Shown piece after piece: positions 4,598-63,316 of a stretch of 64,000 bases of DNA. Numbering within the stretch: the stretch's first letter is position 1; each line of letters begins with the position of its first letter. Source of the DNA: an uncultured Bacilli bacterium (lineage in GTDB: Bacteria > Bacillota_I > Bacilli_A > RF39 > UBA660); contig CATNCE010000001.1 of the NCBI GenBank assembly GCA_950097225.1, positions 48,451-112,450 of the forward strand, in the 5' to 3' direction. Under the pieces are notes generated by a model. It worked only from the letters and a program-made list of their open reading frames with translations, was not told the origin of the DNA and made no database searches. A program made the translations under genes and the position numbers.

Positions 4598-4615
4598 GTA
4601 TTTAGGTGATGCGTT

Positions 4616-32098: not shown

Positions 32099-32394
32099 TT
32101 AATGTGAGAAAGACTACTAGTCCGTTGAAATGGAGAAAGGGAGAAAAAATGATTTTGTTTTTTATCGCGCTTTTTGCTGTTTTAACACCAATTGCTATCG
32201 TCTACACATATGCTAGTTTAAGTAGTTCAAATATTGAAGTTGAAAAGATAAAAAAACAAATTGAGAAACAGGAAAATATCAATGCAGGACTTTCAATGCA
32301 AGTTGATGAGCTAGCATCGCTTTCTAATATTCAAGATATTGCAAAAGCTTACGGATTAAGTTATAATAATGATAATATTATAATAATAAAGTAA
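32095..32394 (+). CDS. ftsL: FtsL-like cell division protein
   Basis: Small bitopic protein (TM, then coiled coil) at the canonical position between rsmH and the PBP gene. The call rests on position. Confidence 0.6.
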   Translation: MINVRKTTSPLKWRKGEKMILFFIALFAVLTPIAIVYTYASLSSSNIEVEKIKKQIEKQENINAGLSMQVDELASLSNIQDIAKAYGLSYNNDNIIIIK

Positions 32395-32406
32395 GAGGGT
32401 TAGAAT

Positions 32407-34596
32407 ATGAAATATACAAACAATACAATAAGAATAAACGTTTTATTTATTATTAGTATTGTTTTTTTATTTTCCATCTTTTTTGGAAAGTTAGCTTATG
32501 TTGCTATGAATACTCATGTTGAAGGAACTGATTTAGCTCTTCTTGCTAAAAATAGAAGTATAGCTACTAAGACTATTAGAGCTGAGCGTGGACGGATATA
32601 TGATAATGCGGGGGAATTGTTAGCTCAAAATGTAAATAGTTATAAGTTAATTGCTTATTTAAATGAGGGAAGAACAACTGATGAGCGTTATCCAAGACAT
32701 GTGGTTGATAAAGAGGAAACAGCTCGTTTGTTGACAGAAGTGTTAAATAAGAATAATATAGGTGTTACAGAAAAGTATATGTTGGATTTATTAAATCAGC
32801 AGGGGCTATATCAGACTGAATTTGGGGTATATGGGCGTGGACTTACTGAGAATATTAAAAGACAAATTGAAGCTTTGGACTTGCCAGGCCTAGACTTTAT
32901 TAAGACAAGTAAACGCTATTATCAAAATGGAGATTTTGCATCTTATATAATTGGTTATGCTAAGACTTATGAAAAAGAGGATGGGACTAAAACGGTTGGG
33001 GAGCTTGGAATAGAGGGGTATTGTGATCAATACTTAAGAGGAAAAGATGGTAGTATTACTTATCAAAAAGATGCCTATGGTTATCAGCTGCCGGGTAAAG
33101 ATAAGATAACTTATACTGAGGAAGCTTTAGATGGGTATGATGTCTATCTGACATTGGATAAGCAAATTCAATATTTTTTGGATAATGCAGTTTCGGATTT
33201 GAAAAAGTTTGAGCCAGAATGGGTTACTTTAACTATCGCTGATGCTAAAACAGGAGCTATTATAGGGTCTTCTACTACACCATCTTTTAATCCAAATACT
33301 TTAGATATAACTAACTATAATAATCCATTATTAAGTTTTACTTATGAGCCGGGTTCGACAATGAAGATATTTTCTTATATGTCGGCTATTGAGGATCCTG
33401 ATGGAAAATATAATGGGGATGAGTTATATCAGTCAGGAACTATTCAAGTAGCTAACTATACGATCAAGGATTGGAATCGCTATGGTTGGGGGAATATTTC
33501 TTATGATGTTGGTTTTACTTATTCATCTAATGTTGCAGCAGTAATGTTAGCTGAACGTTTAGGACGAAATAAATTAACTGATTATTATACTAAACTTGGT
33601 TTTGGCAAGAAAACAGGAATTGAGTTATCTAATGAGTTATCAGGAGATATTGATTTTGAATATTTATCAGAGTTAGCGGCAGCTTCCTATGGACAGGGAA
33701 TAACTGTTACGCCTATTCAAATGATTCAGGCACTAACGACTTTAACAAATGATGGGACAGTTTTAAAACCTTATATAATTAGTAAAATAGTTGATCCAAA
33801 TACTGGAGATGTCGTTTATTCGCGTGATCGCAAGGAACTAGAGAAGGTTTATTCTACTTCAACAGTTAAGAAGATGATTGAGTTAATGGATAAAACAGTT
33901 AATGGTGATGATTCGGCAGCAACTGGTAAAGTGTATTCGACGGATGCGGTTCGTCTTATCGGTAAAACAGGAACAGCTAACTATGTTGGAGCTGATGGCA
34001 AATATGTTACGGGGAGTTATGCAAATATTCGTTCTTTTGCAGGAGTTTTTCCAAAGGAAAATCCAGAATATATAATTTATATGGCAGTTAAGGATTTTAA
34101 GGGAGCATCAAAAGATTTAGGATCGGTAGTTAAGAATTTGGTCGAAAGTGTGGCTAAATATCGTAATTTAGATGAACGCCCAAGCGATAAGGACGAGACA
34201 AAAATCGTAAAAGTTGGTAATTATTTAAATACATCGCTTATATCTAGTCAAACAAAATTGAATAATTTAGGAGTTGCACCAATTATCATTGGGGATGGGT
34301 CAGTTGTAATTGATCAGTATCCAAAGAAGAATACGAAAATAAGTCAAAAATCTAAAGTATTTTTGGTTACCAATGGTAAAAATGTTGTTGCTCCTAACAT
34401 GGTAGGGTGGAGCAGCAGTGAGATTACTAGTTATGCTAAGTTATTAGGAATTCCTTATGAAATAAATGGATATGGCTATGTTGTATCGACAAATATCAAT
34501 GAGGGTGATATAATTGATGTATCAACATCAAAGATTGTTGCTACGCTTTCTAATTTAGAAGCGGGATCATTAGTTACAGAAGGAGAATTGACATGA
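32407..34596 (+). CDS. Class B penicillin-binding protein (PBP2B/SpoVD type) with two PASTA domains
   Basis: SxxK (GSTMK), SSN (YSSNVAA) and KTGT motifs, a dimerisation domain, and two C-terminal PASTA-like repeats. It lies in the dcw context. Confidence 0.9.
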   Translation: MKYTNNTIRINVLFIISIVFLFSIFFGKLAYVAMNTHVEGTDLALLAKNRSIATKTIRAERGRIYDNAGELLAQNVNSYKLIAYLNEGRTTDERYPRHVVDKEETARLLTEVLNKNNIGVTEKYMLDLLNQQGLYQTEFGVYGRGLTENIKRQIEALDLPGLDFIKTSKRYYQNGDFASYIIGYAKTYEKEDGTKTVGELGIEGYCDQYLRGKDGSITYQKDAYGYQLPGKDKITYTEEALDGYDVYLTLDKQIQYFLDNAVSDLKKFEPEWVTLTIADAKTGAIIGSSTTPSFNPNTLDITNYNNPLLSFTYEPGSTMKIFSYMSAIEDPDGKYNGDELYQSGTIQVANYTIKDWNRYGWGNISYDVGFTYSSNVAAVMLAERLGRNKLTDYYTKLGFGKKTGIELSNELSGDIDFEYLSELAAASYGQGITVTPIQMIQALTTLTNDGTVLKPYIISKIVDPNTGDVVYSRDRKELEKVYSTSTVKKMIELMDKTVNGDDSAATGKVYSTDAVRLIGKTGTANYVGADGKYVTGSYANIRSFAGVFPKENPEYIIYMAVKDFKGASKDLGSVVKNLVESVAKYRNLDERPSDKDETKIVKVGNYLNTSLISSQTKLNNLGVAPIIIGDGSVVIDQYPKKNTKISQKSKVFLVTNGKNVVAPNMVGWSSSEITSYAKLLGIPYEINGYGYVVSTNINEGDIIDVSTSKIVATLSNLEAGSLVTEGELT

Positions 34597-44283: not shown

Positions 44284-44357
44284 AAGTTAAGTTAAAAATG
44301 TTTACTAAGAATGTTAATTATGATATATTATTTTTAGAATAAGGAGTGTGTTTGATA

Positions 44358-46502
44358 ATGTTAAAACATAAGAAAAAAGGTTTTACGTTAGTTGAACTTT
44401 TAGTAACAATTGTCTTACTTGGAGTAATTGGAGCAATTGTTATTTATAATATGACGAGTATTTCCACAAGCTCTAAAGAAGTGGAGTATGAGCGCTATAT
44501 TGCGAAAGTTAAATCAGCTGCTAGTGTATATGCTGATATGAATCAAGCAGCATTTAATGAGTTATATGTAAGTAGGGCTTATATTTATATTAAAATCGAT
44601 GATTTAGTTAAGAATGGTTTATTAGATGCTGATTTGGTAAATCCGTATACTAATGAGAGAATTGACCTTAGTGATTTAGTAAAAGCTAGTTTGGATACAA
44701 CGAATGGTAGTGTTGTTTTCGAGTATCCAATGAATGAGACTTTAACTGAGTCAACATTGGTTGCTATAAGTGATTATGTTGTATGGGGGGAACCATATGA
44801 TTGTATGCGTGGTGCAGGTAGTTATGAGTTAGCGCTAAGCGATGAAGAGGGAAATTTAATTGACTTAACTGCTACTGATGAACATGGGGTTAAGAATATG
44901 CAAAAGTACAATTTTGCTTGTCAAATGCCAAAAGAATTTGAGAATTATAATGATCCATCGACTGGTGTTAAGGGGCTTAGAACTACTAAACCAGGAAATT
45001 ATGAGATAACTTATAGTTGGATTACTGAAAGTGGGACAAAGAAGACAGCTTCACGTATTTTAAGAGTTTTATCAAAGTCAGAGCCATCTTTTAAAACAAA
45101 TGTTGCAGATTATGATTTTGGTAAGAATATAGATGTTAAAAATGGAGCAAACAATTTTATTAGATGTTCAAATTGCGATGCTAATAACTTCTATCAACCA
45201 GCTTTAAATAGTGATGGATCATGGAGAGTATTAACATATGAACCATTGATTGAAGGATCTGATGCTGCAAATTCTTCATTTAAGATATCTAAAAAGAAAA
45301 ACAATCCATCTAGTAATGTATGGGAAGACGTTAGTGGTGGATATGTTACTTCATTTGCGGCTCGTCAGGCGGATGATGGAGATAAGACCTATAAGATTGA
45401 GGCAACCGTTCATGGACATTATATAAAGAATTATACATACAATTCGGAAGGTTATGCGCGCTTTAAACAGGAACTTATTTTACCTTCACAATATATATCT
45501 TCTGATACGCCATCTACAAATTGGGGAACAAAGAATAGCTATAATATTAACTCAGATACAACGGGACATCAGTCTCCAGTCGGAATTGCTAGGTATGAGT
45601 ATCGTATAAGTAATTCTACTTCAATGGATAAGAGCTTAGAAGTTATTAATGCTAATTTATTTGAGAAGATTGCTACTGTTACTAGTAAGGATGTTTCAAT
45701 TTTAAGTGATACATCGTGTGTTGATCGTGCACTTGAATATACTAATATATTCTTCAGGGCTATAAACAAAGATGGCTATGTTGGTACGTGGACGCGTTAC
45801 GATACAAAACTTACTAATCAGTTAACGAAGCTGATAGATCAAGATTCTAATTCGTGTTCTAGTTCGGCATCTTGTTGTTTACGATATGGCTCAGAGTGTT
45901 ATTATACAAATAAAGTTTTATATGTAAGTGCTAATAATCAATTGTTAGTAGGTCTTAGAAAATATGGAGATGGATCAATGCTGTTTGCCCTTGATGGTAC
46001 GACAAATGTCAAAGTTTCGCCGTTATCACTTATGAATGGGTATGCAGAACAACAGACTTGTGATGGAACATTCTATAAGAATTATACTTATAATGTTGCA
46101 AATGATAATATTCAACGCGAGGTACTTCGTTGGGCTAATGCAAGCTTTGGAGGATCATCAAAAGTAGTTACGCCAGTAATTCCTGGAGGGGCTTCATATT
46201 CAGCTACTACACTAGATAAAAAGCTTCTTATGACTTATGGTAGTGCTGTTGCTGGAAATCCAACACATTGGCTTTTAGATAATGGTAGAAGTGAGACAAT
46301 AATTTATTTGGATCAACCACACAAACATGCAAATGAATCAACAACGGCATATAATGCATATTTCTATTATGCACAAGGGTTAAATGCTCATCAACAATAC
46401 TCTGGACAAATGGACTATGTAAAACCATTAATTAGATTGCGTGATTTAAATATTTGTTCAGGTTCAGGAACAGCAAGTGATCCATTTATTGTTCTTACAT
46501 AG
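44358..46502 (+). CDS. Giant (714 aa) prepilin-type N-terminal cleavage/methylation domain protein
   Basis: MLKHKKKGFTLVELLVTIVLLGVIGAIVIYN is a class III (type IV pilin) signal, G|FTLVE. RBS AAGGAG. The C-terminus VKPLIRLRDLNICSGSGTASDPFIV resembles the end of 48719..49831. Confidence 0.75.
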   Translation: MLKHKKKGFTLVELLVTIVLLGVIGAIVIYNMTSISTSSKEVEYERYIAKVKSAASVYADMNQAAFNELYVSRAYIYIKIDDLVKNGLLDADLVNPYTNERIDLSDLVKASLDTTNGSVVFEYPMNETLTESTLVAISDYVVWGEPYDCMRGAGSYELALSDEEGNLIDLTATDEHGVKNMQKYNFACQMPKEFENYNDPSTGVKGLRTTKPGNYEITYSWITESGTKKTASRILRVLSKSEPSFKTNVADYDFGKNIDVKNGANNFIRCSNCDANNFYQPALNSDGSWRVLTYEPLIEGSDAANSSFKISKKKNNPSSNVWEDVSGGYVTSFAARQADDGDKTYKIEATVHGHYIKNYTYNSEGYARFKQELILPSQYISSDTPSTNWGTKNSYNINSDTTGHQSPVGIARYEYRISNSTSMDKSLEVINANLFEKIATVTSKDVSILSDTSCVDRALEYTNIFFRAINKDGYVGTWTRYDTKLTNQLTKLIDQDSNSCSSSASCCLRYGSECYYTNKVLYVSANNQLLVGLRKYGDGSMLFALDGTTNVKVSPLSLMNGYAEQQTCDGTFYKNYTYNVANDNIQREVLRWANASFGGSSKVVTPVIPGGASYSATTLDKKLLMTYGSAVAGNPTHWLLDNGRSETIIYLDQPHKHANESTTAYNAYFYYAQGLNAHQQYSGQMDYVKPLIRLRDLNICSGSGTASDPFIVLT

Positions 46503-46513
46503 GAGGCATAGGT

Positions 46514-48517
46514 ATGCAAAAGAATAAGATGAAGAAGAAACAAAGAGTAATAGCTATTATAGTAGTTCTAATACTACTAGTAGCTGTTACAGCTGTTGTA
46601 ATTTATATGTTGAAGAATAAAAACAGCAATGGAGGTTTCTTTGGGGAGCCAATAAATGAGAATTTTTCATTCTTAGTTTCGGAACCAAGTGAGGAACTTG
46701 TTGATTATAATATGATTGGTGCACAAGGAGAGATAACTAAGAATATATTAGATACTTATAAAAAGGGAAAATATACGGTTGATAATCCATATATTGTGGT
46801 TAATCCATACTTATATAGTCCACAGACAGCTTTAATGCTGTTTAAGACTGATAAAAAGGAAGCTGTTAAAATAACTATTAAGGGGAAACACAATGATGAT
46901 TTAGTAGTTAATTTTGAAGAGAGTAAGGATCATTATATCCCATTATATGGTTTATATGGCAAGAGTGAAAACGAAGTAACTATTGAAACTGCTAGTGGGA
47001 AAAAGAATACTGTTAAAATCAATGTTGAAGGTGGTACTTCACATGGTGAAATAGAAGTAATTACTAATAATGTTACAAATAGCAATGGAGAGTTTTTCTT
47101 TGGTACTACTGCTATAGGAACTGCTACTTTGGGTATTGATAATTATGGAGAAGTTAGATGGTTTTTAAGTGAGGACTTTTCTAAGGGAATGGTTATGTTA
47201 CAGAATGGACATCTTTTACTTGCTGATGTTACAGCTGGACCTAATGCTATTTCAACTGGTGGAGTTATAGAAGTAGATATGTTAGGTTTTATTCATCGTC
47301 AGTATGAAATAGAAGGTGGATATCACCATGATGCATATGAGATGGAAAATGGAAATCTTTTAATAACGAGCAATGATATAAATGCTGATTCCTTTTGTGA
47401 TGTTGTCTATGAGATTGATCGCAAGACAGGAAAAGTAGTAAAGACTTTTGATTTTACTAAAATTGTCAAGGAAGTTGATCCTAGTATCATCGAGTATGGA
47501 GAAATTACTTGGGGATTTATCAATAGTGTTTTTTATGATGAGGCACGCAAGGAAGTCGTTGTGTCTTTGCGCAATCGCAATTCGGTAATGGCTATTGATT
47601 ATGAAACTGAGAGCATTAAATGGATATTAGGAAATAGTAAATATTGGTCAAATAAGTTTAATCCGTATTTAATTAGGGGTGTGGGAGCTGATTTTATTTA
47701 TCCAGCTGGACAACACTCAGTGGAAATTGATAAGGATGGTAATCTGTCAATATTTAATAATGGTTATAATTCTTTTAGAGAGAAGACAGTTTCTTGTGCA
47801 TCGTTAAAAGGAAGCTCTTCTTATGGAATGATTTATAATCTTGATCGAGATAGAAAGACGGCAACTGTTACTTATAAGTTTGGTGGAAGTCAATATTTCT
47901 CTTATGCTTTGAGTAGTTTTAATTATACTAAAGATGGGCATAAGGTCTTTAATACAGGATGGCATTTTAGTGATCCAAGTATTTATGATGATACGAAGTG
48001 TACACAATTTACTAATGATAAGTATGATGCCTATATTGTTGAACTTGATGATAATGACAATGTCCTAGTTGAACTCAAGATTAATGAGTCTAAATTTGAA
48101 GTAATTAAGGCACCAATATATAATTTAGAAGCAGTTAGTGTTAAAAAGAATGTTAAAGAGGTAATTTCTAATTATGACTTTAGCAGTGATGCTTATTATG
48201 TTTCTAATATTGAATCACAACAATACGAAATTTTAAGTGAAAAAGATGCTTTAGCTTATAAAGAAAATACTGCTAATCCACTTGATTTCTTTATCTTGAA
48301 TAAGAGAATGACTTTCCAAGGTATGTTAATGAACTCTGCGACTTTGAAAGTTACATTAATTTCTCCTAAGGGAGTTGCATATCGTTATGTGGTTAAAGAG
48401 TCGGGAAGTGAAACATATAGAGTTATAGATCTATCGGCTTTACCAAAGGGAAGATATTATATTTATGTTAATTTAGATGATTCAATATATAATACTCAAC
48501 AGCATATTGAGTTATAG
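46514..48517 (+). CDS. Arylsulfotransferase (ASST)-family beta-propeller protein, membrane anchored
   Basis: NPYIVVNPYLYSPQTALMLFKT...ITIKGKH fits the ASST N-terminal domain. GGYHHDAYEMENGNLLI fits the HHD...NGN propeller motif. RBS GGAGG lies 11 nt after the upstream stop. Confidence 0.6.
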   Translation: MQKNKMKKKQRVIAIIVVLILLVAVTAVVIYMLKNKNSNGGFFGEPINENFSFLVSEPSEELVDYNMIGAQGEITKNILDTYKKGKYTVDNPYIVVNPYLYSPQTALMLFKTDKKEAVKITIKGKHNDDLVVNFEESKDHYIPLYGLYGKSENEVTIETASGKKNTVKINVEGGTSHGEIEVITNNVTNSNGEFFFGTTAIGTATLGIDNYGEVRWFLSEDFSKGMVMLQNGHLLLADVTAGPNAISTGGVIEVDMLGFIHRQYEIEGGYHHDAYEMENGNLLITSNDINADSFCDVVYEIDRKTGKVVKTFDFTKIVKEVDPSIIEYGEITWGFINSVFYDEARKEVVVSLRNRNSVMAIDYETESIKWILGNSKYWSNKFNPYLIRGVGADFIYPAGQHSVEIDKDGNLSIFNNGYNSFREKTVSCASLKGSSSYGMIYNLDRDRKTATVTYKFGGSQYFSYALSSFNYTKDGHKVFNTGWHFSDPSIYDDTKCTQFTNDKYDAYIVELDDNDNVLVELKINESKFEVIKAPIYNLEAVSVKKNVKEVISNYDFSSDAYYVSNIESQQYEILSEKDALAYKENTANPLDFFILNKRMTFQGMLMNSATLKVTLISPKGVAYRYVVKESGSETYRVIDLSALPKGRYYIYVNLDDSIYNTQQHIEL

Positions 48518-51811: not shown

Positions 51812-51919
51812 AATAATTTCTCCTTTTTAATCTATTTTAAATATATCAAAATAAGATGTTTTTGTAAATTATAACTAGATTATAAGCTAATATTTATGTA
51901 TAATGATAGTGGTGATAAT

Positions 51920-52561
51920 ATGAACTTTTTATCAGATTTAGGAATTGTTATTAAAAATAAGGAATTACTCTTAACAGCACTTACGCATTCTTCTTATGCT
52001 AATGAAGAAAATGTTGAAAGTTATGAGCGTTTAGAGTTTTTGGGGGATGCAGTTTTAGAACTTGCAACTAGTGAATATTTTTATTTGCGCTCTTCTTTAA
52101 AAGAGGGCGATATGTCTAAAGTACGTGCTAGTTATGTTTGTGAAACGGCCTTAGCTGAGTATAGCAATAAAATTGGTTTGACTCCTAATATTCGTACAGG
52201 TAATGGAGTTAATAAAGAAACTCCATCGATTGTTGCCGATTGTTTTGAAAGCGTTTTAGCAGTTATCTTTTTGGAACATGGTTTTTCGGTTGCTAAAAAG
52301 TATGCTTTGAATATTATTACGCCTTATGTAGAAAAGGGAGTTACTTTTATTCATGATCATAAATCTTATTTACAAGAGATGGTACAGATGGAGAAGAAGA
52401 GTTTAGAGTATATTGTCGTTAAAGAGGAAGGACCTGCTCATGATAAGACGTTTGTAGTAGAAGTAATTGTCGATGGTATTAAATTTGGACGTGGGGTTGG
52501 TAAGTCAAAAAAAGAGGCTGAACAAAATGCGGCTAGAGATGCGATAAGTAAAGTGGCTTAG
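51920..52561 (+). CDS. rnc: Ribonuclease III
   Basis: ERLEFLGDAVLE signature and a C-terminal dsRBD (GPAHDKTF...GKSKKEAEQNAA). Confidence 0.95.
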   Translation: MNFLSDLGIVIKNKELLLTALTHSSYANEENVESYERLEFLGDAVLELATSEYFYLRSSLKEGDMSKVRASYVCETALAEYSNKIGLTPNIRTGNGVNKETPSIVADCFESVLAVIFLEHGFSVAKKYALNIITPYVEKGVTFIHDHKSYLQEMVQMEKKSLEYIVVKEEGPAHDKTFVVEVIVDGIKFGRGVGKSKKEAEQNAARDAISKVA

Positions 52562-52569: not shown

Positions 52570-55512
52570 ATGAAGTTGATGAGTATAAAGGCACATGGCT
52601 TTAAGTCATTTGCTGATAAAATTGAGATTAATGTTGGCGATGGAATAACTGGTATTGTTGGACCTAATGGTTCTGGGAAAAGTAATGTTGTTGATGCTGT
52701 TAAATGGGTGCTTGGAGAGAGTAGTTTAAAAGAGATTCGTGGAGGAGAGCAATCAAGCGATATTATATTTATGGGCTCAAATTCGCGCAGTGGATCAAGT
52801 CGTGCTTGGGTTTCTTTGACTTTTGATAATCATGATCATTATTTGGCAACCGAGTTTGAAGAAGTCGAAATAAAAAGAGAAGTATATAAAACAGGGGAAA
52901 ATGAATATTACATAAATAATACCAAGGTTCGTAAGAAAGATATAACGGATTTGTTTTTGGATAGTGGAGCTAATGCGGATTCTTTTTCTATTATTTCGCA
53001 AGGTAAAATTATGGAAATCTTAAAGGGAAAAGCAAGTGATAGAAGAGTTATTATCGAAGAGGCATCAGGAGTCTTGAAGTATAAAAAGCGCAAGGACGAA
53101 ACAATGCGTAAACTGGCTAATACTAATGATAATTTAGAAAAAGTAAATTTAGTTATTGATGAATTAGAGGTTAATGTTGAACCCTTACGTAAACAAGCCT
53201 GTGATGCTAGTAAGTATTTAGAATTAAAAAGTGAACTTGAAAGCATTGATATTGCTTTAATGGCTAGTGATATTAAAAATATTCATGCTGAATATAAAAT
53301 ATGTGAAGAGGATTTGAAACGTTTACAAGAAGAAGTTTTGAATATGGATAATGCTAATTCGGTTGATAATACTAAGTTATCTGGCTTAAAGCACATGGGA
53401 GATAAGCTCGAGGAAGAGATAAGTTCTTTGAGTGATGAAGTGATTAAAATTAGTGAAACTGTTAGTGCTTTGGAGATGCGAAAACAGGTTATTAAAGAGC
53501 GTAAGAAGTATGAAGTTGATGATCAGAAATTAGAGAATAATATTTTAGCTCTTAAGGAAAAAGAACTTGCTTTTCGGAAGAGTATAAGTTTTTTGGAAAA
53601 CGAAATTAAAGTTTTAGAAGAAGATAAGAATAGTAAAGATAAAGTTCTTAGTGATGCACAAGCTGAGTATCGGAATTTAGGGGTGCGCAAGCAGACTTTA
53701 AATGATGAACTTGCCAATAAGTCAAGAGAACTTTTGAATGTTAAAAATAAGATTGAGGTATTAAAGGATAATATTGAAAATGATACTAAACTTCCATATG
53801 CTGTTAAAAGTGTTTTAAATAATCCACGTTTAAAGGGGATACATGATGTTTTAGTTAAGTTGATTGATGTATCAGAAAAACACGTTATGGCGATAGAAAT
53901 AGCACTTGGAGCTAATAGTAATGTTGTCGTTGTTGATAATGAAGAGGCAGGGAAAAGCGCTATTAACTATCTAAAGGATAATAAGTTAGGAAGAGCTACT
54001 TTTTTTCCAATAAGTATTATTAAAGGAAGAATGATTTATCCTGATGATTTAAAATTGGCAAAAGAGGTTCCAGGTTTTGTGGGGGTGGCTGCGGAATTAG
54101 TTAAATATGATCCACTATACAAGGGGATTGTTGAGAATCAACTCGGGAATACTTTAGTTGTCGATAATATTGATTCGATGAATGCTCTTGGTAAGAAAAT
54201 CAATTATAAGTATCGCGTTGTAACATTAGATGGAGAAATTTTGCATACTGGTGGAGCAATGAGTGGTGGTATTAACAAGGCTTCTAATGGAGTTATAAAT
54301 GCTAAGTTTGAATTGGATAAAAATATTAATTTGCAAAATGTCTTAGTAAATGAGGTTAAACTTATTGAAGAACATCTTAATAGCTTAGATGATGATTTAA
54401 AGATATTAGAAGAAAAAATATTTGCGAGCCAAGCGAATGTTGTAAGCGTTGGGGAGCAAGTTAATCGTAAGAAAATGGAAATGCAAAGTGCAAGTAAAGA
54501 CTTGGATGATTGTATTTTAGAAATTCAGGGAACAAGTAATGTTTTAAATAATGAGACTGATAAAGAATTAGATCAGGTATTAAAAGAATATTTGGCTAAT
54601 ACGACGAAGAAGGATGAATTAGTAATTAAATTAAACGCTAAAAAGATGGAAAGAAATGATGTTATGGCTAATATCAATGAACTCGAGTCGATTAGTCGTA
54701 AAAATAATGCTGAATATAATAGGAAACAGGCTTCTATTCATGATTTAGAAGTTAATATTGGTAAGATGGATGTTAAACTTGATAATATGCTTAATAGGCT
54801 TAGTGAAGAATACCAAATTACTTATGAAAGAGCAATGAGTGAATATAGTTTAGATATGGATGAGGCTGTTGCTCGTAGTAAGGTTAATCAAATTCGCAGA
54901 GATATTAAAGATTTGGGTGATGTTAACGTTGGGGCTATTGGAGAGTATGAACGAGTTAATACGCGTTATACTTTCTTGGTTGATCAACGAACAGATTTGG
55001 AGAGAGCTATTGCCGATATTGTCGAGATTATTGCCGATTTGGATGAGACAATGAAGGCACGTTTTTCAGAGACTTATGCGAAAGTTAATGAGGAATTTGG
55101 GAAAGTATTTAAAAAGTTATTCAAGGGTGGACATGCTGAACTTATTTTAACAGATCCAGAAGATATGCTTACAACCGGTATAGATATATCAGCAGAACCG
55201 CCAGGAAAAAACTTGAAGAGTATTAATACATTATCAGGTGGAGAGATGACACTTACAGCTATTGCTTTGCTTTTTAGTATTTTAAATATTAGGACTGTTC
55301 CATTTTGTATCTTGGATGAGGTCGAGGCCGCACTTGATGAGGCAAATGTTGATCAGTTTGGAACTTATATTAAAGAGTATGAAAATAATAGTCAATTTAT
55401 AGTTATAACGCATAAGAAGAGAACAATGGAGTATGCTAATACCCTTTATGGGATTACGATGCAAGAATCTGGGGTTTCAAAACTTGTTAGTGTTAAGTTA
55501 GAAAATTTATAA
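52570..55512 (+). CDS. smc: Chromosome segregation protein SMC
   Basis: Walker A GPNGSGKSN, long coiled coils, a hinge, and C-terminal LSGGE and ILDEVEAALD. Confidence 0.95.
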   Translation: MKLMSIKAHGFKSFADKIEINVGDGITGIVGPNGSGKSNVVDAVKWVLGESSLKEIRGGEQSSDIIFMGSNSRSGSSRAWVSLTFDNHDHYLATEFEEVEIKREVYKTGENEYYINNTKVRKKDITDLFLDSGANADSFSIISQGKIMEILKGKASDRRVIIEEASGVLKYKKRKDETMRKLANTNDNLEKVNLVIDELEVNVEPLRKQACDASKYLELKSELESIDIALMASDIKNIHAEYKICEEDLKRLQEEVLNMDNANSVDNTKLSGLKHMGDKLEEEISSLSDEVIKISETVSALEMRKQVIKERKKYEVDDQKLENNILALKEKELAFRKSISFLENEIKVLEEDKNSKDKVLSDAQAEYRNLGVRKQTLNDELANKSRELLNVKNKIEVLKDNIENDTKLPYAVKSVLNNPRLKGIHDVLVKLIDVSEKHVMAIEIALGANSNVVVVDNEEAGKSAINYLKDNKLGRATFFPISIIKGRMIYPDDLKLAKEVPGFVGVAAELVKYDPLYKGIVENQLGNTLVVDNIDSMNALGKKINYKYRVVTLDGEILHTGGAMSGGINKASNGVINAKFELDKNINLQNVLVNEVKLIEEHLNSLDDDLKILEEKIFASQANVVSVGEQVNRKKMEMQSASKDLDDCILEIQGTSNVLNNETDKELDQVLKEYLANTTKKDELVIKLNAKKMERNDVMANINELESISRKNNAEYNRKQASIHDLEVNIGKMDVKLDNMLNRLSEEYQITYERAMSEYSLDMDEAVARSKVNQIRRDIKDLGDVNVGAIGEYERVNTRYTFLVDQRTDLERAIADIVEIIADLDETMKARFSETYAKVNEEFGKVFKKLFKGGHAELILTDPEDMLTTGIDISAEPPGKNLKSINTLSGGEMTLTAIALLFSILNIRTVPFCILDEVEAALDEANVDQFGTYIKEYENNSQFIVITHKKRTMEYANTLYGITMQESGVSKLVSVKLENL

Positions 55513-55656
55513 GAATGTAAAAAACTATATACAAATTGCTAAATATTTGTTAGAATATTTGTATATAGTAGGTATATGTTCTTTAACTTGACCAATAATA
55601 CGATATTTGATATAGTATTATCGGTTGAAAAGAATGTGTGTGGAGGGAAAGTAAAA

Positions 55657-58449
55657 ATGGACGAAAAGTTTATACAAAAATATTTTGACGAATTTCGTAA
55701 ATTTTCTTTGATGTTAGAAGAAAAAGAGAAAAAAGTTTTTGCGATGTCAAATGTAGATTATGATGTTGATCGTGGTATTTATGATGCTATAGAAGATACG
55801 TATTCAAACATGAGCTATTCGGATTATGTAGAAGAAGAGTCTAAGAAAAATGGGACAGTTATGTCAGAAAACGAGTTTGAAGCGTATAAGAAAGAAAGAG
55901 TTGCAGCGCTAAATAGAAATAGTGTTGGAAGAACTGATTATAATGGCGTTTATCAACCACATATGTATACTGAGGTTGAAAGTGAAATAGACGATATTAC
56001 TAAACAAATTAGAGAAGAGATAGCTCGTGAGAAAAAGGTTATTTCTAATTTGGTTCGTACGATTGAGGCTCAACTTAGTGTTTACCAAGATGAACTTGAT
56101 GATTGTTATAAAGCGATGATTAACGCGGATACTAATGAAGAAAAGGTGCGTCTTGGAGTAGAATTCAATGTTATAAAGAAAAATCATGAAATCAACAAAC
56201 AAGCTTTAGCTGATATGAAAATGTATCGTCGATTAATTGATCAAATTAATAAGGCGTATAGTCGTGATGATAGCTCACTTACTTATGATTCTATGGTGGT
56301 ATTTGCCGATAAGATTCATGAAGTTGAGGCATCAGTTAAATATTTAGGAGATAAGTTAGATAATGTTGATTATAATGAATTTCAAATCGATGTTACTTTT
56401 GATCCAGTAAGAAATGTAAATGTTGTGAATTGTCGTTGTGGGAATGTTGTATTATTTCCTGCACCTGATTTTGTTGCAGGCCAAATTACACCTGATACAA
56501 TAGATGGTATTTTATATAAATTTGCTGATAAAGTGGCTGCTAATTCACCATTGTCAGTGGAAGAGATAAAAGCTAAAGACATTAAATGTGTGGTATATGA
56601 TAATAATTATGGTAAAGTACCTTTTGCTAATGTTGGTGAAGTTTTATGTTCTCATATAGATAAGGATTTGAATAATGCTAATAGTTTGGATAATCCTTCA
56701 GCACCAGGACAAGATGATTTCTTAGCACCAGAATCACAAACTCCTCCAGTGCCAGGACAGGATAATTCTCCAGTACAAGGACAACAAACTCCTCCAGTAC
56801 CAGGACAGGATAATTCTCCAGTACAAGGACAACAAACTCCTCCAGTACAAGGACAGGATAATTCTCCGGCACAAGGACAGCAAACTCCTCCAGTACCAGG
56901 ACAGGATAATTCTCCAGTACAAGGACAGCAAACTCCTCCAGTACCAGGACAAGATAATTCTCCAGTACAAGGACAAGATAATCCTCCAACATCTAGAAGA
57001 AATGATAGTCCAGTGAAGGAACTCATGAAAGAAGCTAAGAGAATTAAATCAGTTAGAAATTCGAGATTACACAAAGCAGAAATGGCTGGATTAATTGCAA
57101 CGGTAGCAGCAGCGGGCTTAGGGGCTACTATTTTCCCTCCAGCAGCGTTGGCTACTGTACCAGCTCTTGTAGCAACAGGGGGAGTTGCAGCTACGGATGT
57201 AATTTCAAAAGTAAAAGACAAAGCTAAAGTGTGGGCTGTTACTCATAAATATAATAGCATAGCTAAGAAGTTAACTAAAAAATTAGGTGGAAGAAAAAGT
57301 GGTATAAAATGCTACGTTAAATCAATTCCGAATACCGGTGAAATTAGATTTATGATTTCTCAAGATGGGAAAGAAATTGGGCCAATTGATTCACATTCGA
57401 CGGGATATGTATTGTGCGATGAATTAGGATACGAGCAAAATGAAGCAAATACAATAGTTAATTATTTGAATAAGGCTTTGAACAAGTCATTCGATTACAT
57501 GAATAATGATGAAAAACGTAAAGGTACTCATTATGAAAAATATAGAATTCCAAAGGTTGATGTTGATAACTTAGAAGCAGCATATGTTGAGTATGGTGGC
57601 TATGATTTTGGACTTGAGGGTGATCAATATGCCGAAATGGATATTCGCAAGAAATCGCGAAAGAAGATGAAAAAAGGACGCAAAAGCATCTTTAGAAAGA
57701 GACATAGACTTGGTGATGAAATTACAGAGGATAATTTAGAAGATATAGCCGAGAGAAATTTTCAAGCTTTAGGTGATGGTACTTCTGAGGGAGAAGCGTT
57801 AAGCGAAGAAGAACAAGAAGAGTTCTTAGATCAGTTGTACGCTGATGATTATGATTATGACTATGAACAAGGTCAACAAGGACAAGAAGAGGAACTAATA
57901 GAAACACCAAATGAAGATTGGTATTCCCAACCTGTAGGTGAAAATCAAGGAACTGAGAGTAATTTTCAAGATGAACAAACTCCAGTAAATTATGAAGATA
58001 GCGAGTTACAAAATCCTGGTCAAGCTCAGCAAGCATCAGTGAATCCTGGTCAAGCTCAGCAAGCATCAGTGAATCCTGGTCAAGATGAACAACCGTCAGT
58101 AGATCCTGCTGTTGCTGCTAGATGGAGTGTGGATGATGAACAGGATTTTACTCCTCTGGATGAAAATTCTAACCAAGAGATGTCATTTCAGGAAGTGGGA
58201 CAAAATCAAAATTTGAATAATGCGCTTGCTGCAAATATAAATTCTGTTCTTGAAGCATTGCCATTTACGGCAGAACTTGATGAGACTGAAAGACAACAAT
58301 TTGTAAATGAGATATTAATGCAAGGCGAAGCTAGACAAAACGAAATCTTGAATGAAATATATTCAGGAAATGTAGCTTCTATTGATGAATTAAGAAACGT
58401 TATTTTACAAGATTCTATGGCACAAGAACAAAGTGCTCCAAGTATGTGA
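55657..58449 (+). CDS. M1: 930-aa hypothetical protein (N-domain, P/Q-rich repeats, Gly/Ala hydrophobic hairpin, shared core module, acidic repeat tail)
   Basis: RBS GGAGGG precedes the ATG at 55657. The core from ~aa 470 is paralogous to 58838..59695 and 60055..60918. Confidence 0.7.
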   Translation: MDEKFIQKYFDEFRKFSLMLEEKEKKVFAMSNVDYDVDRGIYDAIEDTYSNMSYSDYVEEESKKNGTVMSENEFEAYKKERVAALNRNSVGRTDYNGVYQPHMYTEVESEIDDITKQIREEIAREKKVISNLVRTIEAQLSVYQDELDDCYKAMINADTNEEKVRLGVEFNVIKKNHEINKQALADMKMYRRLIDQINKAYSRDDSSLTYDSMVVFADKIHEVEASVKYLGDKLDNVDYNEFQIDVTFDPVRNVNVVNCRCGNVVLFPAPDFVAGQITPDTIDGILYKFADKVAANSPLSVEEIKAKDIKCVVYDNNYGKVPFANVGEVLCSHIDKDLNNANSLDNPSAPGQDDFLAPESQTPPVPGQDNSPVQGQQTPPVPGQDNSPVQGQQTPPVQGQDNSPAQGQQTPPVPGQDNSPVQGQQTPPVPGQDNSPVQGQDNPPTSRRNDSPVKELMKEAKRIKSVRNSRLHKAEMAGLIATVAAAGLGATIFPPAALATVPALVATGGVAATDVISKVKDKAKVWAVTHKYNSIAKKLTKKLGGRKSGIKCYVKSIPNTGEIRFMISQDGKEIGPIDSHSTGYVLCDELGYEQNEANTIVNYLNKALNKSFDYMNNDEKRKGTHYEKYRIPKVDVDNLEAAYVEYGGYDFGLEGDQYAEMDIRKKSRKKMKKGRKSIFRKRHRLGDEITEDNLEDIAERNFQALGDGTSEGEALSEEEQEEFLDQLYADDYDYDYEQGQQGQEEELIETPNEDWYSQPVGENQGTESNFQDEQTPVNYEDSELQNPGQAQQASVNPGQAQQASVNPGQDEQPSVDPAVAARWSVDDEQDFTPLDENSNQEMSFQEVGQNQNLNNALAANINSVLEALPFTAELDETERQQFVNEILMQGEARQNEILNEIYSGNVASIDELRNVILQDSMAQEQSAPSM
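56737..56990. repeat. 48-bp near-perfect tandem repeat x5.3 (QTPPVPGQDNSPVQGQ)
   Basis: Units start at 56737, 56785, 56833, 56881 and 56929, with only a few substitutions between them. Confidence 0.95.
58012..58101. repeat. 30-bp tandem repeat x3 (NPGQAQQASV)
   Basis: AATCCTGGTCAAGCTCAGCAAGCATCAGTG occurs at 58012 and 58042, with a diverged third unit. Confidence 0.9.
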
Positions 58450-58463
58450 GAAAGGGAAAGAAT

Positions 58464-58772
58464 ATGATAGAGGTTGGTAATATAGTTACTCTTGAAAATG
58501 ATCAAGAATATCTATTGTTAGAAGAATTAGTGCATGATGCTAAGAAATATGTGTATGCAGTAAGAACAATTGAGAACGATACCCCTACAGATGAATTCAT
58601 TATATATGAAGTGATAAGTGCTGAGGATGGGGACTATATGAAGAATATCGATAGTCAGGAATTGTATGATGAGTTGATTGAAGAGTTCAAAGATGTTGTT
58701 GCTGATAAGATTCTTAATGGAGATTTTAAAGATACATTTGAGGAAAAAGATAATGAAGGAGAAGCTAGTTAA
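58464..58772 (+). CDS. S1: small acidic protein (102 aa), partner of M1
   Basis: The ATG at 58464 is 15 nt after the M1 stop. It is about 73% identical over 88 aa to 59698..59988. Faint resemblance to DUF1292-type small acidic proteins (inference). Confidence 0.7.
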   Translation: MIEVGNIVTLENDQEYLLLEELVHDAKKYVYAVRTIENDTPTDEFIIYEVISAEDGDYMKNIDSQELYDELIEEFKDVVADKILNGDFKDTFEEKDNEGEAS

Positions 58773-58784
58773 GCTTCTTTTTTC
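58761..58784 (+). terminator. Intrinsic terminator after S1
   Basis: GAAGCT-AGTTA-AGCTTC hairpin followed by a T run. Confidence 0.7.
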
Positions 58785-58837
58785 TTGTTATAATACATTC
58801 TGCATGTTATAATAAGTGTATGATTGGAGAATTTGTT

Positions 58838-59695
58838 ATGAGCGAAGAACAAAGAAGAGAAAATGAAGGAAATATAATTGATGATGAATTTCTTGATAAT
58901 CAACCTCGTAAAGTTATAGCACATAGAAAAGCTCGTGTTGCATCGGGAATGTTTTTATCTGGGCTTGCTTTATGTGGTTTAGGTTTGCCAATGCTTGGGG
59001 CTCCAGCTATGGTTGCGGGAGGAACAACGTTCGCTTTTACGGAGGGTAAGGAAATTGTAACAGAACTTATTGAATCTTTGAAAACTCAATTGATATTTGC
59101 TAAATTGGATAAGGTTATAGGAGAAGCTAATAAGTTGTTTGCTGATGATTATGAAAACAAGGGGATACATTTTTATTTTAAAGGTATTGCTGAAGGTAAT
59201 AGGTTAGTTTGTATGGCTACTTTATTTGGGAAAGATATTGGGGTAGTTGATTCACATACTTATAGAGAGACACTAGCCGGGAAAATGCATATGACAGAAG
59301 TAGAAGCTTTTTCAATTTATAAATTTCTTAGTGCTGCATTGAGAAGAGAATTTGCATCTATGCTTAAATCTCCTAAATTAGCACAAAAAGGCTTTGTAGC
59401 TAGTCTTGATTGTTTAGAGAAAGTTTATGTTGATGTTGGTGGATATCAGTACAAAGAAAAAGCTAATCTTACATTTGAAGAATTTTGGGAAGATTGGGAT
59501 CTTCTATGTGAGTTGTCTTCTGAATCTAAGCAAGAGTTGTATCAAGACTTAATGAATTTAGAAGAAGAAAGACAGAATCATATTTTGGCAGCTATTGCTT
59601 GTGGAAGAATAAAAAGTCTACATCAGTTAACTACTTTTGTTCATGGGGAAGAGCAGCTAGATAATGATGATGTTAGATCTAGAAGGGGAATATAA
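58838..59695 (+). CDS. M2: 285-aa paralogue of the M1 core module
   Basis: Gly/Ala hairpin GMFLSGLALCGLGLPMLGAPAMVAGG, then VVDSHTYRE, VDVGGYQY and a C-terminal EERQNHILAAIACGRIKSLHQL. Two TGTTATAAT extended -10 boxes lie at 58786-58794 and 58805-58813. Confidence 0.7.
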   Translation: MSEEQRRENEGNIIDDEFLDNQPRKVIAHRKARVASGMFLSGLALCGLGLPMLGAPAMVAGGTTFAFTEGKEIVTELIESLKTQLIFAKLDKVIGEANKLFADDYENKGIHFYFKGIAEGNRLVCMATLFGKDIGVVDSHTYRETLAGKMHMTEVEAFSIYKFLSAALRREFASMLKSPKLAQKGFVASLDCLEKVYVDVGGYQYKEKANLTFEEFWEDWDLLCELSSESKQELYQDLMNLEEERQNHILAAIACGRIKSLHQLTTFVHGEEQLDNDDVRSRRGI

Positions 59696-59697
59696 TT

Positions 59698-59988
59698 ATG
59701 ATAGAAGTTGGAAATATAGTAACTCTTGAAAATGAAAAGGAGTATCTATTGCTCGAAGAATTAGATCGTGATGATAAAAAGTATGTGTATGCTGTTAGAA
59801 CACTTGAAGATGATACTCCTACAGATGAATACGTTATATTTGAAGTATTACATGTTGATGAAGATGAGTATTTAAAAGATGTTGAGAATCAAGAACTTTA
59901 TGATGAATTAGTTGAGGAGTTTAAAGATATTGTTGCTGATAAGATTCTTAATGGAGACTTTGATGATATGGAGGAAGTTAGTGAATAG
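59698..59988 (+). CDS. S2: small acidic protein (96 aa), partner of M2
   Basis: Starts 2 nt after the M2 stop. MIEVGNIVTLENEKEYLLLEEL...QELYDELVEEFKDIVADKILNGDF. Confidence 0.7.
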   Translation: MIEVGNIVTLENEKEYLLLEELDRDDKKYVYAVRTLEDDTPTDEYVIFEVLHVDEDEYLKDVENQELYDELVEEFKDIVADKILNGDFDDMEEVSE

Positions 59989-60054
59989 CTTCTTCTTTAT
60001 TTGCCAAAATAAATGTTGCTATGGTATAATGGCGAAGAAACGGAGAAAAAGGTT

Positions 60055-60918
60055 ATGAACGAAAATAAAAGTGAAACTCAAAATGAGACTATGATTGTTG
60101 CAGAAAAAACTCATAAAGTAATGTATTCGCGATTTTGTAAATTATATAAAGTATTTGGCAGTATTGCTATTGTTGGTTTAGCTAGTATGGGCTTGGGATT
60201 TAATGATTTTGGAACGACTGTTGCAAGAGTTGGAGCGTTTTCATTAGGAACTAGTGCAGCTGCTTCACTTTTCATGCAAGCTTATCCAGCCATAATTACT
60301 CGTAAGCTTGAAAAAATCGCCAATAGGCTTAATTCTATGTTTTCTACCTTTTCTAGTAAGAGAGAGCTTAGATTTAGGTTAGCTATTGATTCACATTCGG
60401 GAGAAGTTAATTATTGTGTGTTATTAGATAATCAAGTATTGGGTTTAATTACAACTGATGGATATTTAGATGTTCTTGTTAATAAAGCTGGCCTTGAACC
60501 TGGTGCTGCTGAGGCGATTGTTACTTATCTTAATAATTCTTTATTATCTGTTTTTTCGAGTATTAAGAATAAAGATATTTATGAAGCAAATACTTTTGAT
60601 ATACCAAGTATTGATATTGATAATATGGACGCTATTTATGCAATGTATGGACATTCTTTTTTAAAGTCTAGAGATGATATGTGTTTTGAAGAATACTTTG
60701 ATAGATGGAATGTTATAGCTATTCTTGATGAAGTTGAAAAAAATGCTTTATTTGAAGAAATTTTGGCGTTAGATTTTGAAAGAAGAGCGATAGTTTTAGA
60801 GGGAATCTATACTAATTCTATTAAAGATGTTGAGGAATTACGAAGTCTTATTGCAAATGGTAAAAAAGTGCAAAAAGGACACGCTTTAGCTATGGAGAAA
60901 AAAGAAGAAATCAAGTAA
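60055..60918 (+). CDS. M3: 287-aa paralogue of the M1 core module (no S partner)
   Basis: TTGCCA-18 nt-TATAAT with TG (60001-60030). Hairpin IAIVGLASMGLGFNDFGTTVARVGAFSLG, then IVTYLNNSL, AMYGHSF and FERRAIVLEGIYTNSIKDVEEL. Confidence 0.7.
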   Translation: MNENKSETQNETMIVAEKTHKVMYSRFCKLYKVFGSIAIVGLASMGLGFNDFGTTVARVGAFSLGTSAAASLFMQAYPAIITRKLEKIANRLNSMFSTFSSKRELRFRLAIDSHSGEVNYCVLLDNQVLGLITTDGYLDVLVNKAGLEPGAAEAIVTYLNNSLLSVFSSIKNKDIYEANTFDIPSIDIDNMDAIYAMYGHSFLKSRDDMCFEEYFDRWNVIAILDEVEKNALFEEILALDFERRAIVLEGIYTNSIKDVEELRSLIANGKKVQKGHALAMEKKEEIK

Positions 60919-60979: not shown

Positions 60980-61519
60980 ATGAAAAAAGTATGTGCATTG
61001 TTGGTTATTTCATTATTGTTAGTTACAGGTTGTACACTTTTAGGAAGTGCCCCAAAGGATGAGGCTGCGAAGTTTTTTAATAGTTATAAAAATAACAGTG
61101 AAACAGTAGTTAAAGAACTTGATGATTATTTAAATACTCAAAATTTAGATGAAGATACTTTGAAAGATTATCGTGAACTATATTTGAAACAATATAGTAA
61201 TCTAAAATATGATATTAAAGATCAGAAGATTAATGGTGATACGGCTTTAGTAGAAGTTCAAATAACTGTTTTTGATTATTATAAAACTGATAAGCTAGCA
61301 GGAGATTATTTTACTGCTAATCAAGCTGATTTTGTCGGGGATGATGGGGATATCGATTTTACGAAATATTTTGCTTATAAGATTCGTAAATTATTAGATA
61401 CAACAGATACCGTTGATTATACATTGACACTTAATTTGAAAAAGGTTAATGATAAGTGGGAAGTTGAACCTTTAACTAATGAAGAATTAATGAAATTGCA
61501 TGGAACTTATGAATACTAA
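60980..61519 (+). CDS. Lipoprotein, function unknown
   Basis: Lipobox LLVTGC after MKKVCALLVISL. Confidence 0.7.
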   Translation: MKKVCALLVISLLLVTGCTLLGSAPKDEAAKFFNSYKNNSETVVKELDDYLNTQNLDEDTLKDYRELYLKQYSNLKYDIKDQKINGDTALVEVQITVFDYYKTDKLAGDYFTANQADFVGDDGDIDFTKYFAYKIRKLLDTTDTVDYTLTLNLKKVNDKWEVEPLTNEELMKLHGTYEY

Positions 61520-61625: not shown

Positions 61626-63316
61626 ATGAAGAAGAAAAGTTTAATAATTTTAAGTATATTGTTACTTGTAATTGGATAGCGTAGCAACTAATTTGATAAT
61701 CAATAGCAATTTGAATATTGGATATAATAATACTTTTTTGGATGATGTTGTTTTCATAAAAACTAAGACAGAAGGTGAGTCTTCTATAAGTGAAAATGGA
61801 AAGGCGATTACATATGACGCTAAGAAAATAAGTGCAATGAATGAAGAAACAAATCTAACATTTTGGGTGAAGAATAAGAAGAATACTCAATATGATGCTA
61901 TGATGTAACCATTAATTGTAGTTTAAACGATAATTCAAGTAACTTAGTCAACTTAGTAGATGTAACAATAAATCCAAGTAGTTTTACATTAGCAAGTAAC
62001 GAATTCAAAACTGGAGAAGTAAAAGTAAAGTTAAAAAGTGTAGTAACAGAAGAGAAATCTGGAACCTTTACATGTGAGTTAGTAGCAACACCAGTAGAAA
62101 GAGAAGAGCCAGGTGTAATAACACCTGATAATTTATATGAAGGTAGTGTAATAAATGGAGCTAAGCCAGAGATATCTAAAAATTTAATACCAGTAACTTT
62201 AGATAATACTGGAGTAGTAAAATATGCTAATACGGATGAGAAATGGTATGATTATACAAATAAAGAATGGGCCAATGCAGTAATATTAGTAGACGAACCA
62301 AGTAAAAATTATAATATAGGTGACGTTATAGTTGAAGCTGATATTGAGTCATACTTCGTATGGGTACCAAGATATAGATATAAGTTGTTTAATGCCGAAC
62401 CAGCAGATGGTCTTAGTGCTCAATTACCAGAAAGTAATGCTCAAACAATTGAAATCGAGTTTGAGAGTAAAGACATACAAGCATCAACTGGAAGTAAGAA
62501 CGGCGAATGGTTAACGCATCCAGCTTTCACAAATTTCGATGTAAATGGGTTGCGGGTAGGTAAGTTTCAAACGGGATACAAAGGAGCGACTAGTGTAACA
62601 TCAGCTCAGGTGAATTCTTCGGATTCTACCAAAATTCAAGTAAAATCTAATGTGCCTTCGTGGCGGGATAACACACTTGGTAATTTCTTTAAAGCTATGT
62701 ATAACTACAATCGCGGACTTGGTTCACATATGATGAAAAATACGGAATGGGGAGCTGTTGCATATCTTCACATTCAAAGTATGGAATTAATACAAATTTG
62801 CGTATAAATAACAATTCAAATTATTTAACAGGCTATGCAGCAAATACACAGTATGCTCTTGCTAGTGCAACAAATAATTCAGCTTATAACACACCAGTTG
62901 GGTATTTGGCGAGTACAACAGGAAATATAAGTGGAATTTATGACATGTCTGGTGGGGCCTGGGAATATGTTGCTGGTTATAAAGATGGTGATTTAGGAAG
63001 TAGTGGACTTACAATGGAGGAGCTAAATGGTATTTATAAAGGATATGTGGATGTTTATCCAAGTGATTCAAGTACATCTACCTATAGCAAACGAATATTA
63101 GGAGATGCAACAGGAGAGATGGGGCCTTTCTATGATTATAATAATTTTAATTTAAGTAATTGGTATCCGTCTTATTCCTTTTTTGTAGATACAGCACCAT
63201 GATTTTATCGAGGTGGGCTCTATAATGCAACAACTCATGCGGGCCAATTTCATTTTTCTAGGGGAACAGGAGAAGTCAGTGATAAAATTGGAGCTCGCCT
63301 TGTTTTATTGGGTTAG
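61626..63316 (+). pseudogene. Disrupted surface protein gene, copy B (paralogue of 21109..22801)
   Basis: Four lesions relative to copy A: a ~5-nt deletion giving TAG at 61677; a +2 insertion near 61899; a -1 deletion near 62768; and an in-frame TGA at 63200-63202 where copy A has Trp (YPWFYRG versus AP*FYRG). Reading across these gives a full-length collinear protein ending IGARLVLLG. Confidence 0.8.

Follow-up and report, generated by a model that had tools for sequence, protein, structure and literature searches.

The window, a 64,000-nucleotide (nt) stretch of contig CATNCE010000001.1 (positions 48,451 to 112,450) from an uncultured Bacilli bacterium, carries behind smc a run of five plus-strand genes, M1-S1-M2-S2-M3, in which three related proteins with a Gly/Ala-rich hydrophobic hairpin (M) alternate with two related small acidic proteins (S). 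Comparison with related genomes showed that the ancestral unit is a single long M gene with an S gene at its 3′ end, and that across a clade of uncultured Bacilli from gut and rumen this unit sits behind smc. The M2-S2-M3 part of the window is an expansion special to this species, and the basic pair is clade-wide. Judged by profile alignment, S is probably a divergent member of the DUF1292/UPF0473 (YrzB) family. The new element is a context and a partner for a known, uncharacterised family, together with an orphan multi-domain protein, M, which we tentatively read as a membrane-anchored cytoplasmic scaffold that docks S as an adaptor.

An earlier note on this DNA had described the five genes from the letters alone, and its five open reading frames (ORFs) and all quoted motif strings were present in the translations. 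M1, the long form and clade-wide orthologue (930 aa), lies at 55657–58449 and is followed after 14 nt by S1 (102 aa, 58464–58772). The short paralogue M2 (285 aa, 58838–59695) retains the hairpin, core and C-terminal helices and lacks the N-terminal domain (N-domain); only 2 nt separate it from S2 (96 aa, 59698–59988). A second short paralogue, M3 (287 aa, 60055–60918), has no S gene behind it. The proposal of three paralogous M and two paralogous S proteins was borne out by BLASTP: M2 and M3 matched over 239 aa (E = 2e-16), M1 and M3 at E = 2e-13 with a separate match of the C-terminal helices (E = 5e-6), M1 and M2 at E = 7e-11, and S1 and S2, which are 72% identical, at E = 2e-37. The description of S as strongly acidic proteins of ~100 aa also held, both having an isoelectric point (pI) of 4.05, with 30–34 acidic against 8 basic residues. 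In a three-way alignment the M proteins were collinear, running from a basic stretch and the hairpin through a β-rich segment and a ...GGY motif to the terminal helices, and M1 differed from the other two by a ~200-aa acidic insertion ahead of the last domain. M2 and M3 are 22–28% identical to M1 and to each other, so that the short forms appear, from these alignments, to be either old or fast-evolving. Both were seen in the window species, and amino-acid-identical copies were present in one other sample. The best match of M3 was the short M protein of a related locus (L007, E = 6e-16); a word-indexed homologue search with M3 alone returned M3 itself as the sole hit.

Related loci were found by scanning one genome per species with an alignment of S. 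This identified 26 loci, all in uncultured metagenome-assembled genomes (MAGs) from mouse, human (Hadza), rabbit, deer, sheep and rumen, which are labelled Bacilli, Erysipelotrichales or Firmicutes, with a few labelled Muribaculaceae, probably by mislabelling. S homologues formed 173 clusters at 55–99% identity, and the few that carry a source name come from MAGs called 'Bacilli bacterium'. In every locus with enough flanking sequence, across the 26 species-level genomes and further metagenome contigs, smc was followed by a large ORF (700–1290 aa) and then by S, with M and S abutting or spaced by 0–21 nt, and it is because of this order that the single M-S pair is taken to be ancestral. The smc products of these loci are 64–78% identical to that of the window. 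The large ORF matched the M hidden Markov model (HMM) in most loci; in four (L019, L022, L025 and L027) divergence has gone too far for a match, and the ORF retains the architecture, with the basic stretch, the Gly/Ala hairpin and a basic K.KL..IA.K helix. The hairpin was found in 29 of 30 upstream ORFs, the exception (L024) being a 159-aa fragment at a contig end.

Copy number varies around this arrangement. One locus has the order M-S-M, with a second M of 271 aa (L007), two have M-S-S (L021 and L026), and the closest relative of S2 (78% identical) comes from a locus with one M (842 aa) and one S (95 aa). A further short M, P0134, stands elsewhere, adjoining a glucosaminidase gene; its 3-kb contig carries no S. 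A search for M2 on phages, and for S2 on phages and plasmids, found neither. The earlier note had regarded the cassette as a lineage-specific insertion after smc and had suggested comparing gene neighbourhoods. That comparison showed the M-S pair to be conserved across the clade, well beyond this strain, with the smc-M-S order fixed, wherever the flank sufficed, across the 26 species-level genomes; species-specificity is left to the M2-S2-M3 expansion alone.

The architecture of M was assessed on M1 using an AlphaFold2 (AF2) model built from a 16-sequence alignment. The N-domain (aa 1–343; 55657–56685), a ~340-aa region that the earlier note had put at 330 aa, was predicted as a confident fold (predicted local distance difference test, pLDDT, mostly 80–95), composed of a long helical bundle (aa 1–234) and a small α/β subdomain (aa 242–343), both at high confidence. 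The α/β subdomain bears the conserved motif V.C.CGN...EFT.EQ.T.EA..G.LYKFA.KVA. It is joined by a disordered, P/Q/G-rich linker 1 (aa 344–450; 56686–57006; pLDDT about 30), which contains a tandem repeat of 48 nt × 5.3 (56736–56988), to the basic stretch and Gly/Ala-rich hairpin (aa 452–517; 57010–57207). The hydrophobic part of the hairpin (aa 474–517) has a PP turn mid-way, a maximum Kyte-Doolittle value of 1.69 over 19 aa and, in its first arm, a GLG motif of which the GL (G487, L488) is invariant in a 12-sequence alignment. The 50-aa blocks on its two sides carry net charges of +5 and +9. AF2 modelled aa 452–490 as a helix at moderate confidence, falling low past ~480, and gave low confidence to aa 482–515, that is, to most of the hairpin.

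The core module that follows (aa 509–650; 57181–57606; pLDDT about 80–93) is common to M1, M2 and M3 and comprises, in order, a long basic helix, a three-strand β-meander, helices and the motif PKV(T/D)VDNLEAAY..GGY. Next comes a basic patch, RKKSRKKMKKGRKSIFRKRHRL (aa 664–685; 57646–57711), seen among the compared sequences in the long forms only, and then the strongly acidic linker 2 (aa 687–846; 57715–58194), with a repeat of 30 nt × 2.4 (58012–58084). The model left the whole of aa 651–846 disordered at low confidence. M1 ends in a five-helix domain (aa 847–924; 58195–58428; pLDDT about 90) shared with M2 and M3; it accounts for the separate BLASTP match to M3. Both repeat tracts of M1 reported in the earlier note were thus found to be real, and the module kept in all three paralogues consists of the hairpin, the basic helix with the core, and the C-terminal bundle. 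Local hhalign comparisons of the four M modules with one another and with S detected neither internal duplication nor homology between M and S (probabilities of at most 1.5%). No signal peptide was detected on M or S.

As the earlier note had supposed, M belongs to no described family. Searches of M1–M3 against Pfam, NCBIfam, PHROGs and PADLOC gave no credible match, nor did searches of the Protein Data Bank (PDB) by sequence and by fold, and no Pfam family recurred when 36 M homologues were scanned singly. PDB profile searches with the whole of M and with the core alone returned chance-level matches only (LemA, E = 0.0015; Sso1, E = 0.016; RRF, E = 0.018), and a Foldseek search of the PDB with the whole M1 model returned long-helix noise (best E = 0.16). 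For the N-terminal bundle in particular, the weak profile matches were to LemA (2etd, E = 0.0015) and the PACSIN F-BAR domain (E = 0.06), and the weak Foldseek matches to the STAT coiled coil and the Hof1 F-BAR domain (E = 0.16–1.6). These values lie below significance and are typical of long helices, and membership of the LemA or F-BAR families is not claimed. A replacement of ftsY by M after smc was considered and dropped, as Pfam revealed no NG-domain or other GTPase signature. When a three-sequence M profile was run against 1.84 billion representative proteins, 15 matches were obtained, two of them the window's own and nearly all of them M1-like (770–855 aa), in keeping with a lineage-restricted unit.

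The S proteins had been left without a family in the earlier note, and here the picture changed. S2 aligned to the whole DUF1292 model (PF06949) at 22.5 bits (E = 2e-4), under the gathering cut-off of 24, with the S alignment spanning profile positions 4–74 of 75. S1 itself had no match to PF06949 at E ≤ 1; DUF1292 matches at E ≤ 0.01 were obtained for 14 of 25 S homologues (best E = 9.2e-7), one of which is named 'DUF1292 domain-containing protein' by NCBI. The length of S1 and S2 (96–102 aa), their acidity and the lack of any hydrophobic segment are as expected of the family, and like the Bacillus subtilis YrzB type they are strongly acidic proteins of ~100 aa that would be cytoplasmic. They differ from it in their sub-cut-off scores and in their pairing with a large hairpin protein after smc. 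In Bacillota, DUF1292 genes usually sit in the neighbourhood ireB(yrzL)-ruvX-yrzB, whereas in all loci with enough flank S came behind M, after smc. No functional study emerged from literature searches on DUF1292, YrzB and UPF0473, and so neither M nor S is placed in a characterised family.

The AF2 model of S (25-sequence alignment; pLDDT 80) shows a single compact domain made up of a five-strand β-sheet and a long C-terminal helix, with a disordered acidic tail. Its resemblance to Tudor or SH3-like folds is an impression only, and Foldseek returned nothing significant from the PDB (best E = 0.8); the best match in the BFVD (E = 0.08, TM score 0.6) was an uncharacterised protein of Bacillus phage SP-15. 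Residues 38–44 form a D-[E/D]-T-P-T-D-E loop (58575–58595 in S1 and 59809–59829 in S2) that is surface-exposed in the model. Both Thr residues are invariant among the 25 homologues, and conservation reaches at least 90% at D38, P41, D43 and E44. To call this loop a modification or binding site would be pure speculation.

The two partners evolve in very different ways. Across the clade, S proteins are 55–78% identical, whereas M proteins are 13–37% identical to M1; by these alignments S is far more conserved than M. Within species, M varies almost solely in the number of linker repeats, either in linker 1 or in the C-terminal acidic linker. In-frame changes in repeat number give M proteins of 784, 812 and 833 aa in one species (L001, L003 and P0125) and of 774 and 792 aa in another (L004 and L005). 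In two assemblies (L002 and L006) M is split into two ORFs precisely at the repeats, for which errors of assembly or slippage are the probable cause. In a comparison of two closely related species (L030 and L031), identity is ~90% in each of the N-domain, the hairpin with the core, and the C-terminus, while neither linker can be aligned and both show differences of more than 100 residues, which indicates that the folded parts are constrained by purifying selection and the tethers free to vary. The ratio of nonsynonymous to synonymous divergence (dN/dS) for the same two species was 0.065 for smc, 0.15 for S and 0.33 for M. We also observed that synonymous divergence (dS) in this comparison was ~0.46 for M and S and 0.14 for the adjacent smc, a roughly threefold difference that could reflect recombination, a different history or alignment noise from the repeats.

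Candidate expression signals were located by consensus matching, and their activity is a prediction. A good promoter-like site precedes M1 (TTGACC, 17 nt, TATAGT, with an upstream TG; 55588–55616), followed by a GGAGGG ribosome-binding site (RBS) at ~55641, although the earlier note had found no promoter for this gene. The TGnTATAAT promoters that it had placed before M2 and M3 were both recovered by the signal scan (TTGTTA, 17 nt, TATAAT at 58785–58813, and TTGCCA, 18 nt, TATAAT at 60001–60030, each with the TG), as was its terminator after S1, a hairpin and T-run (58755–58783) that overlaps the S1 stop codon. A second, weaker terminator-like hairpin follows S2 (59970–59996). Over the whole region 39 promoter-like sites were counted against 31 ± 6 expected, which is no significant excess. 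The gene starts used here were adjusted accordingly. For M1, M2 and M3 the -10 boxes sit within the longest ORFs (starts 55576, 58820 and 60013), and the positions of promoter and RBS make 55657, 58838 and 60055 the likely starts. That of M1 is the one given in the earlier note, and orthologues of M1 begin MDEK or MDER. S1 starts at 58464 (MIEVGN..., conserved in 25 aligned homologues) and not at the GTG at 58446. Independent gene calls on another contig gave proteins of 102, 285, 96 and 287 aa, in agreement with the revised starts.

We propose that M serves as a cytoplasmic scaffold anchored in the membrane, to which the acidic DUF1292-like protein S docks as an adaptor, a reading that we put forward as plausible and tentative. 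The hairpin would be embedded in the cytoplasmic membrane as two helices, its flanks both kept inside in accordance with the positive-inside rule: the basic flanks on the two sides make a cytoplasmic location of both ends probable, and this is probably the most economical topology for M. With the flanks inside and no signal peptide on either protein, all folded parts of M, and S, would then lie in the cytoplasm. The coupling of the two genes suggests co-translation and, together with the complementarity of charge, marks the membrane-proximal basic helix and core of M as the likely dock for S. M would thereby act as a membrane hub, whose long form carries two more folded modules on flexible tethers of variable length, and S would be an adaptor to a conserved cytoplasmic partner. 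M2 and M3 could serve as extra anchors, or as partners in hetero-oligomers formed through the Gly-rich helices. Division and envelope scaffolds that are tethered to the membrane and contain long disordered linkers include ZipA, the FtsK N-terminal linker, RodZ, EzrA and MapZ. M resembles these in general design only (an anchor, a variable Pro/Gln-rich linker and small folded cytoplasmic domains), and no similarity in sequence or fold to them was found. It differs in its anchor, an internal Gly/Ala hairpin in place of a terminal transmembrane (TM) helix, and in having a pair of tethers within a single protein. Our guess, made from the fixed position on the chromosome, would be a role in cell-envelope or cell-cycle housekeeping.

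Several points weigh against this proposal. Binding between M and S is deduced from gene coupling and charge alone. The arms of the hairpin are short (~17 residues each) and moderately hydrophobic (Kyte-Doolittle values of about 1.4–2.2), and the AF2 model is unsure here, so that a re-entrant, monotopic or non-membrane arrangement is possible. Copy numbers are unmatched (three M to two S in the window and one M to two S elsewhere), meaning that a strict 1:1 complex is not required, and the short M P0134 occurs in another context with no S on its contig. Finally, since the carriers are fairly close relatives, with SMC proteins 64–78% identical, adjacency to smc may reflect shared ancestry and not function, being simply inherited gene order within a family-level clade.

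A hairpin of this kind also raises the question of whether M perturbs membranes. Glycine-zipper and SLATT 2TM domains are likewise built from a pair of short hydrophobic helices, rich in Gly and Ala, with a tight turn between them; small-xxx-small motifs abound in the M hairpin, and no feature of the protein is better conserved than the GL of its GLG. M could on these grounds form a pore or channel through oligomerisation of a Gly-zipper-like hairpin, with the very acidic S, encoded directly behind it, as regulator or antitoxin. We consider this unlikely, given that M is a large, multi-domain protein with conserved cytoplasmic modules, that the pair holds a fixed position in every related locus with enough flank, that having the large protein first is an unusual order for toxin-antitoxin pairs, and that M3 and P0134 lack an adjacent S. 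Profile matches point the same way: the one weak match to SLATT_1 (2TM effector; E = 9e-4) was confined to a single protein of the 36 homologues, the Gly-zipper_Omp, Gly-zipper_YMGG and Rick_17kDa_Anti families were absent for the window proteins and from the 25 best-supported families of the 36 homologues, and no PADLOC match fell below E = 0.004 (none for M1–M3, and chance-level values of 0.004–0.025 for S1). The earlier note had suggested a system of either the effector/chaperone or the scaffold/adaptor type. The latter fits better, as an interpretation. Beyond the repeated pairing of a large with a small acidic protein, and a very weak YezG-like immunity match of S2 (E = 0.036), nothing speaks for M as a secreted or polymorphic effector with S as its chaperone or immunity protein, and we regard that arrangement as very improbable. 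M1–M3 and the 36 homologues showed no LXG, WXG, Rhs or toxin domain in Pfam or NCBIfam and no signal peptide, and no secretion genes were seen nearby; the variable parts of M are its linkers, the C-terminus is conserved and no variable toxin module is present. The single fixed smc-M-S position, and the absence of M2 from phages and of S2 from phages and plasmids, are also contrary to it.

The topology of M could instead be that of a surface protein, in which a single membrane span places the core, acidic linker and C-terminal domain outside, and S is unrelated or acts on the N-terminal side only. The Pro/Thr/Glu-rich repeat linkers, with their in-frame length polymorphism, do resemble the wall-spanning regions of Gram-positive surface proteins, and M evolves fast. 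The same kind of repeats, however, is present in the linker on the N-terminal side, which would necessarily be cytoplasmic. In addition, the flanks are strongly basic on both sides (+5 and +9), the hydrophobic region extends over ~45 residues and has a Pro-rich turn at its centre, and no signal peptide, LPXTG or other wall-anchoring Pfam domain was found, which together leave this topology a slim chance. A similarly small chance attaches to M2 and M3 being functionless, decaying duplicates. Their 22–28% identity to M1 and to each other, their occurrence in this species only (with copies unchanged at the amino-acid level in one other sample) and the lack of an S gene behind M3 would be compatible with decay. 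Both nevertheless remain intact ORFs of 285–287 aa with every core element kept, including the C-terminal helices, and for each of them a separate strong promoter-like site and an RBS were found. S2 is also intact, at 72% identity to S1, and an independent short M, the best match of M3 (E = 6e-16), stands behind the M-S pair of L007.

The window otherwise shows the gene content of an ordinary walled member of the Bacillota. Division and wall genes include those for SepF and DivIVA, which are neighbours, for MraW, for a PASTA-PBP2B and for an LtaS-like sulfatase-domain protein (4172–5047; 31169–34596; 14245–16149), and M-S is therefore no substitute for a missing wall. Upstream of M1 lie rnc (51896–52561) and smc (52570–55512). 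Downstream of M3 is a gene for a 179-aa lipoprotein (60980–61519; lipobox LVTGC), which also lies 3′ of S in several relatives. It was considered as a member of the unit and rejected: in L016, L022, L025 and L027 the interval from S to the next large ORF apparently lacks it, and in L004 a transporter gene intervenes between it and S. This lipoprotein matched no Pfam family, and gave weak NCBIfam matches to the C-terminal part of Mycoplasma MSC_0619-type F1-like ATPase alpha subunits (E = 6e-4). Between it and hrcA, which starts at 63442, a single frame of ~545 codons (61672–63313) is broken into four pieces in successive frames (61672–61905, 61896–62804, 62705–63199 and 63203–63313). The third of these weakly matches FGE-sulfatase (E = 1.7e-4), and the whole looks like a decayed gene or the product of assembly frameshifts. 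In L001 and L033, hrcA directly follows the lipoprotein gene. Elsewhere in the window (44346–48517 and 9876–11303) a prepilin-type methylation motif stands at the N-terminus of a 718-aa protein, behind which an arylsulfotransferase (ASST) homologue is encoded, and there is also a repeat protein of the DUF285 ('Mycoplasma') kind; among the large ORFs, several, including 26426–30622 and 99–2000, had no Pfam match at all.

The practical weight of these findings is limited by the uncultured state of the carriers, the narrowness of the family and the lack of a known phenotype. M nonetheless constitutes a family that current profile libraries do not cover; three of its domains are orphans that fold confidently, and its linkers, variable in length within species, provide a natural case for the study of how tether length evolves. 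DUF1292/UPF0473 is a small acidic family from Bacillota such as B. subtilis (YrzB) that carries no assigned function in the literature searched, and the invariable pairing of M with S gives one of its subfamilies a concrete, testable partner hypothesis. Canonical DUF1292 genes neighbour a control circuit for cell-wall precursors. Taking the scaffold reading further, M-S might be a clade-specific membrane-tethering module in which S is the adaptor to the chromosome and SMC, to the divisome or to such a wall-precursor control circuit, M is the fast-evolving anchor and the S loop could be a regulatory (for example Ser/Thr-kinase) site. This is a rather doubtful extension; if true, the M-S pairing would be the first functional handle on the widespread DUF1292 family.

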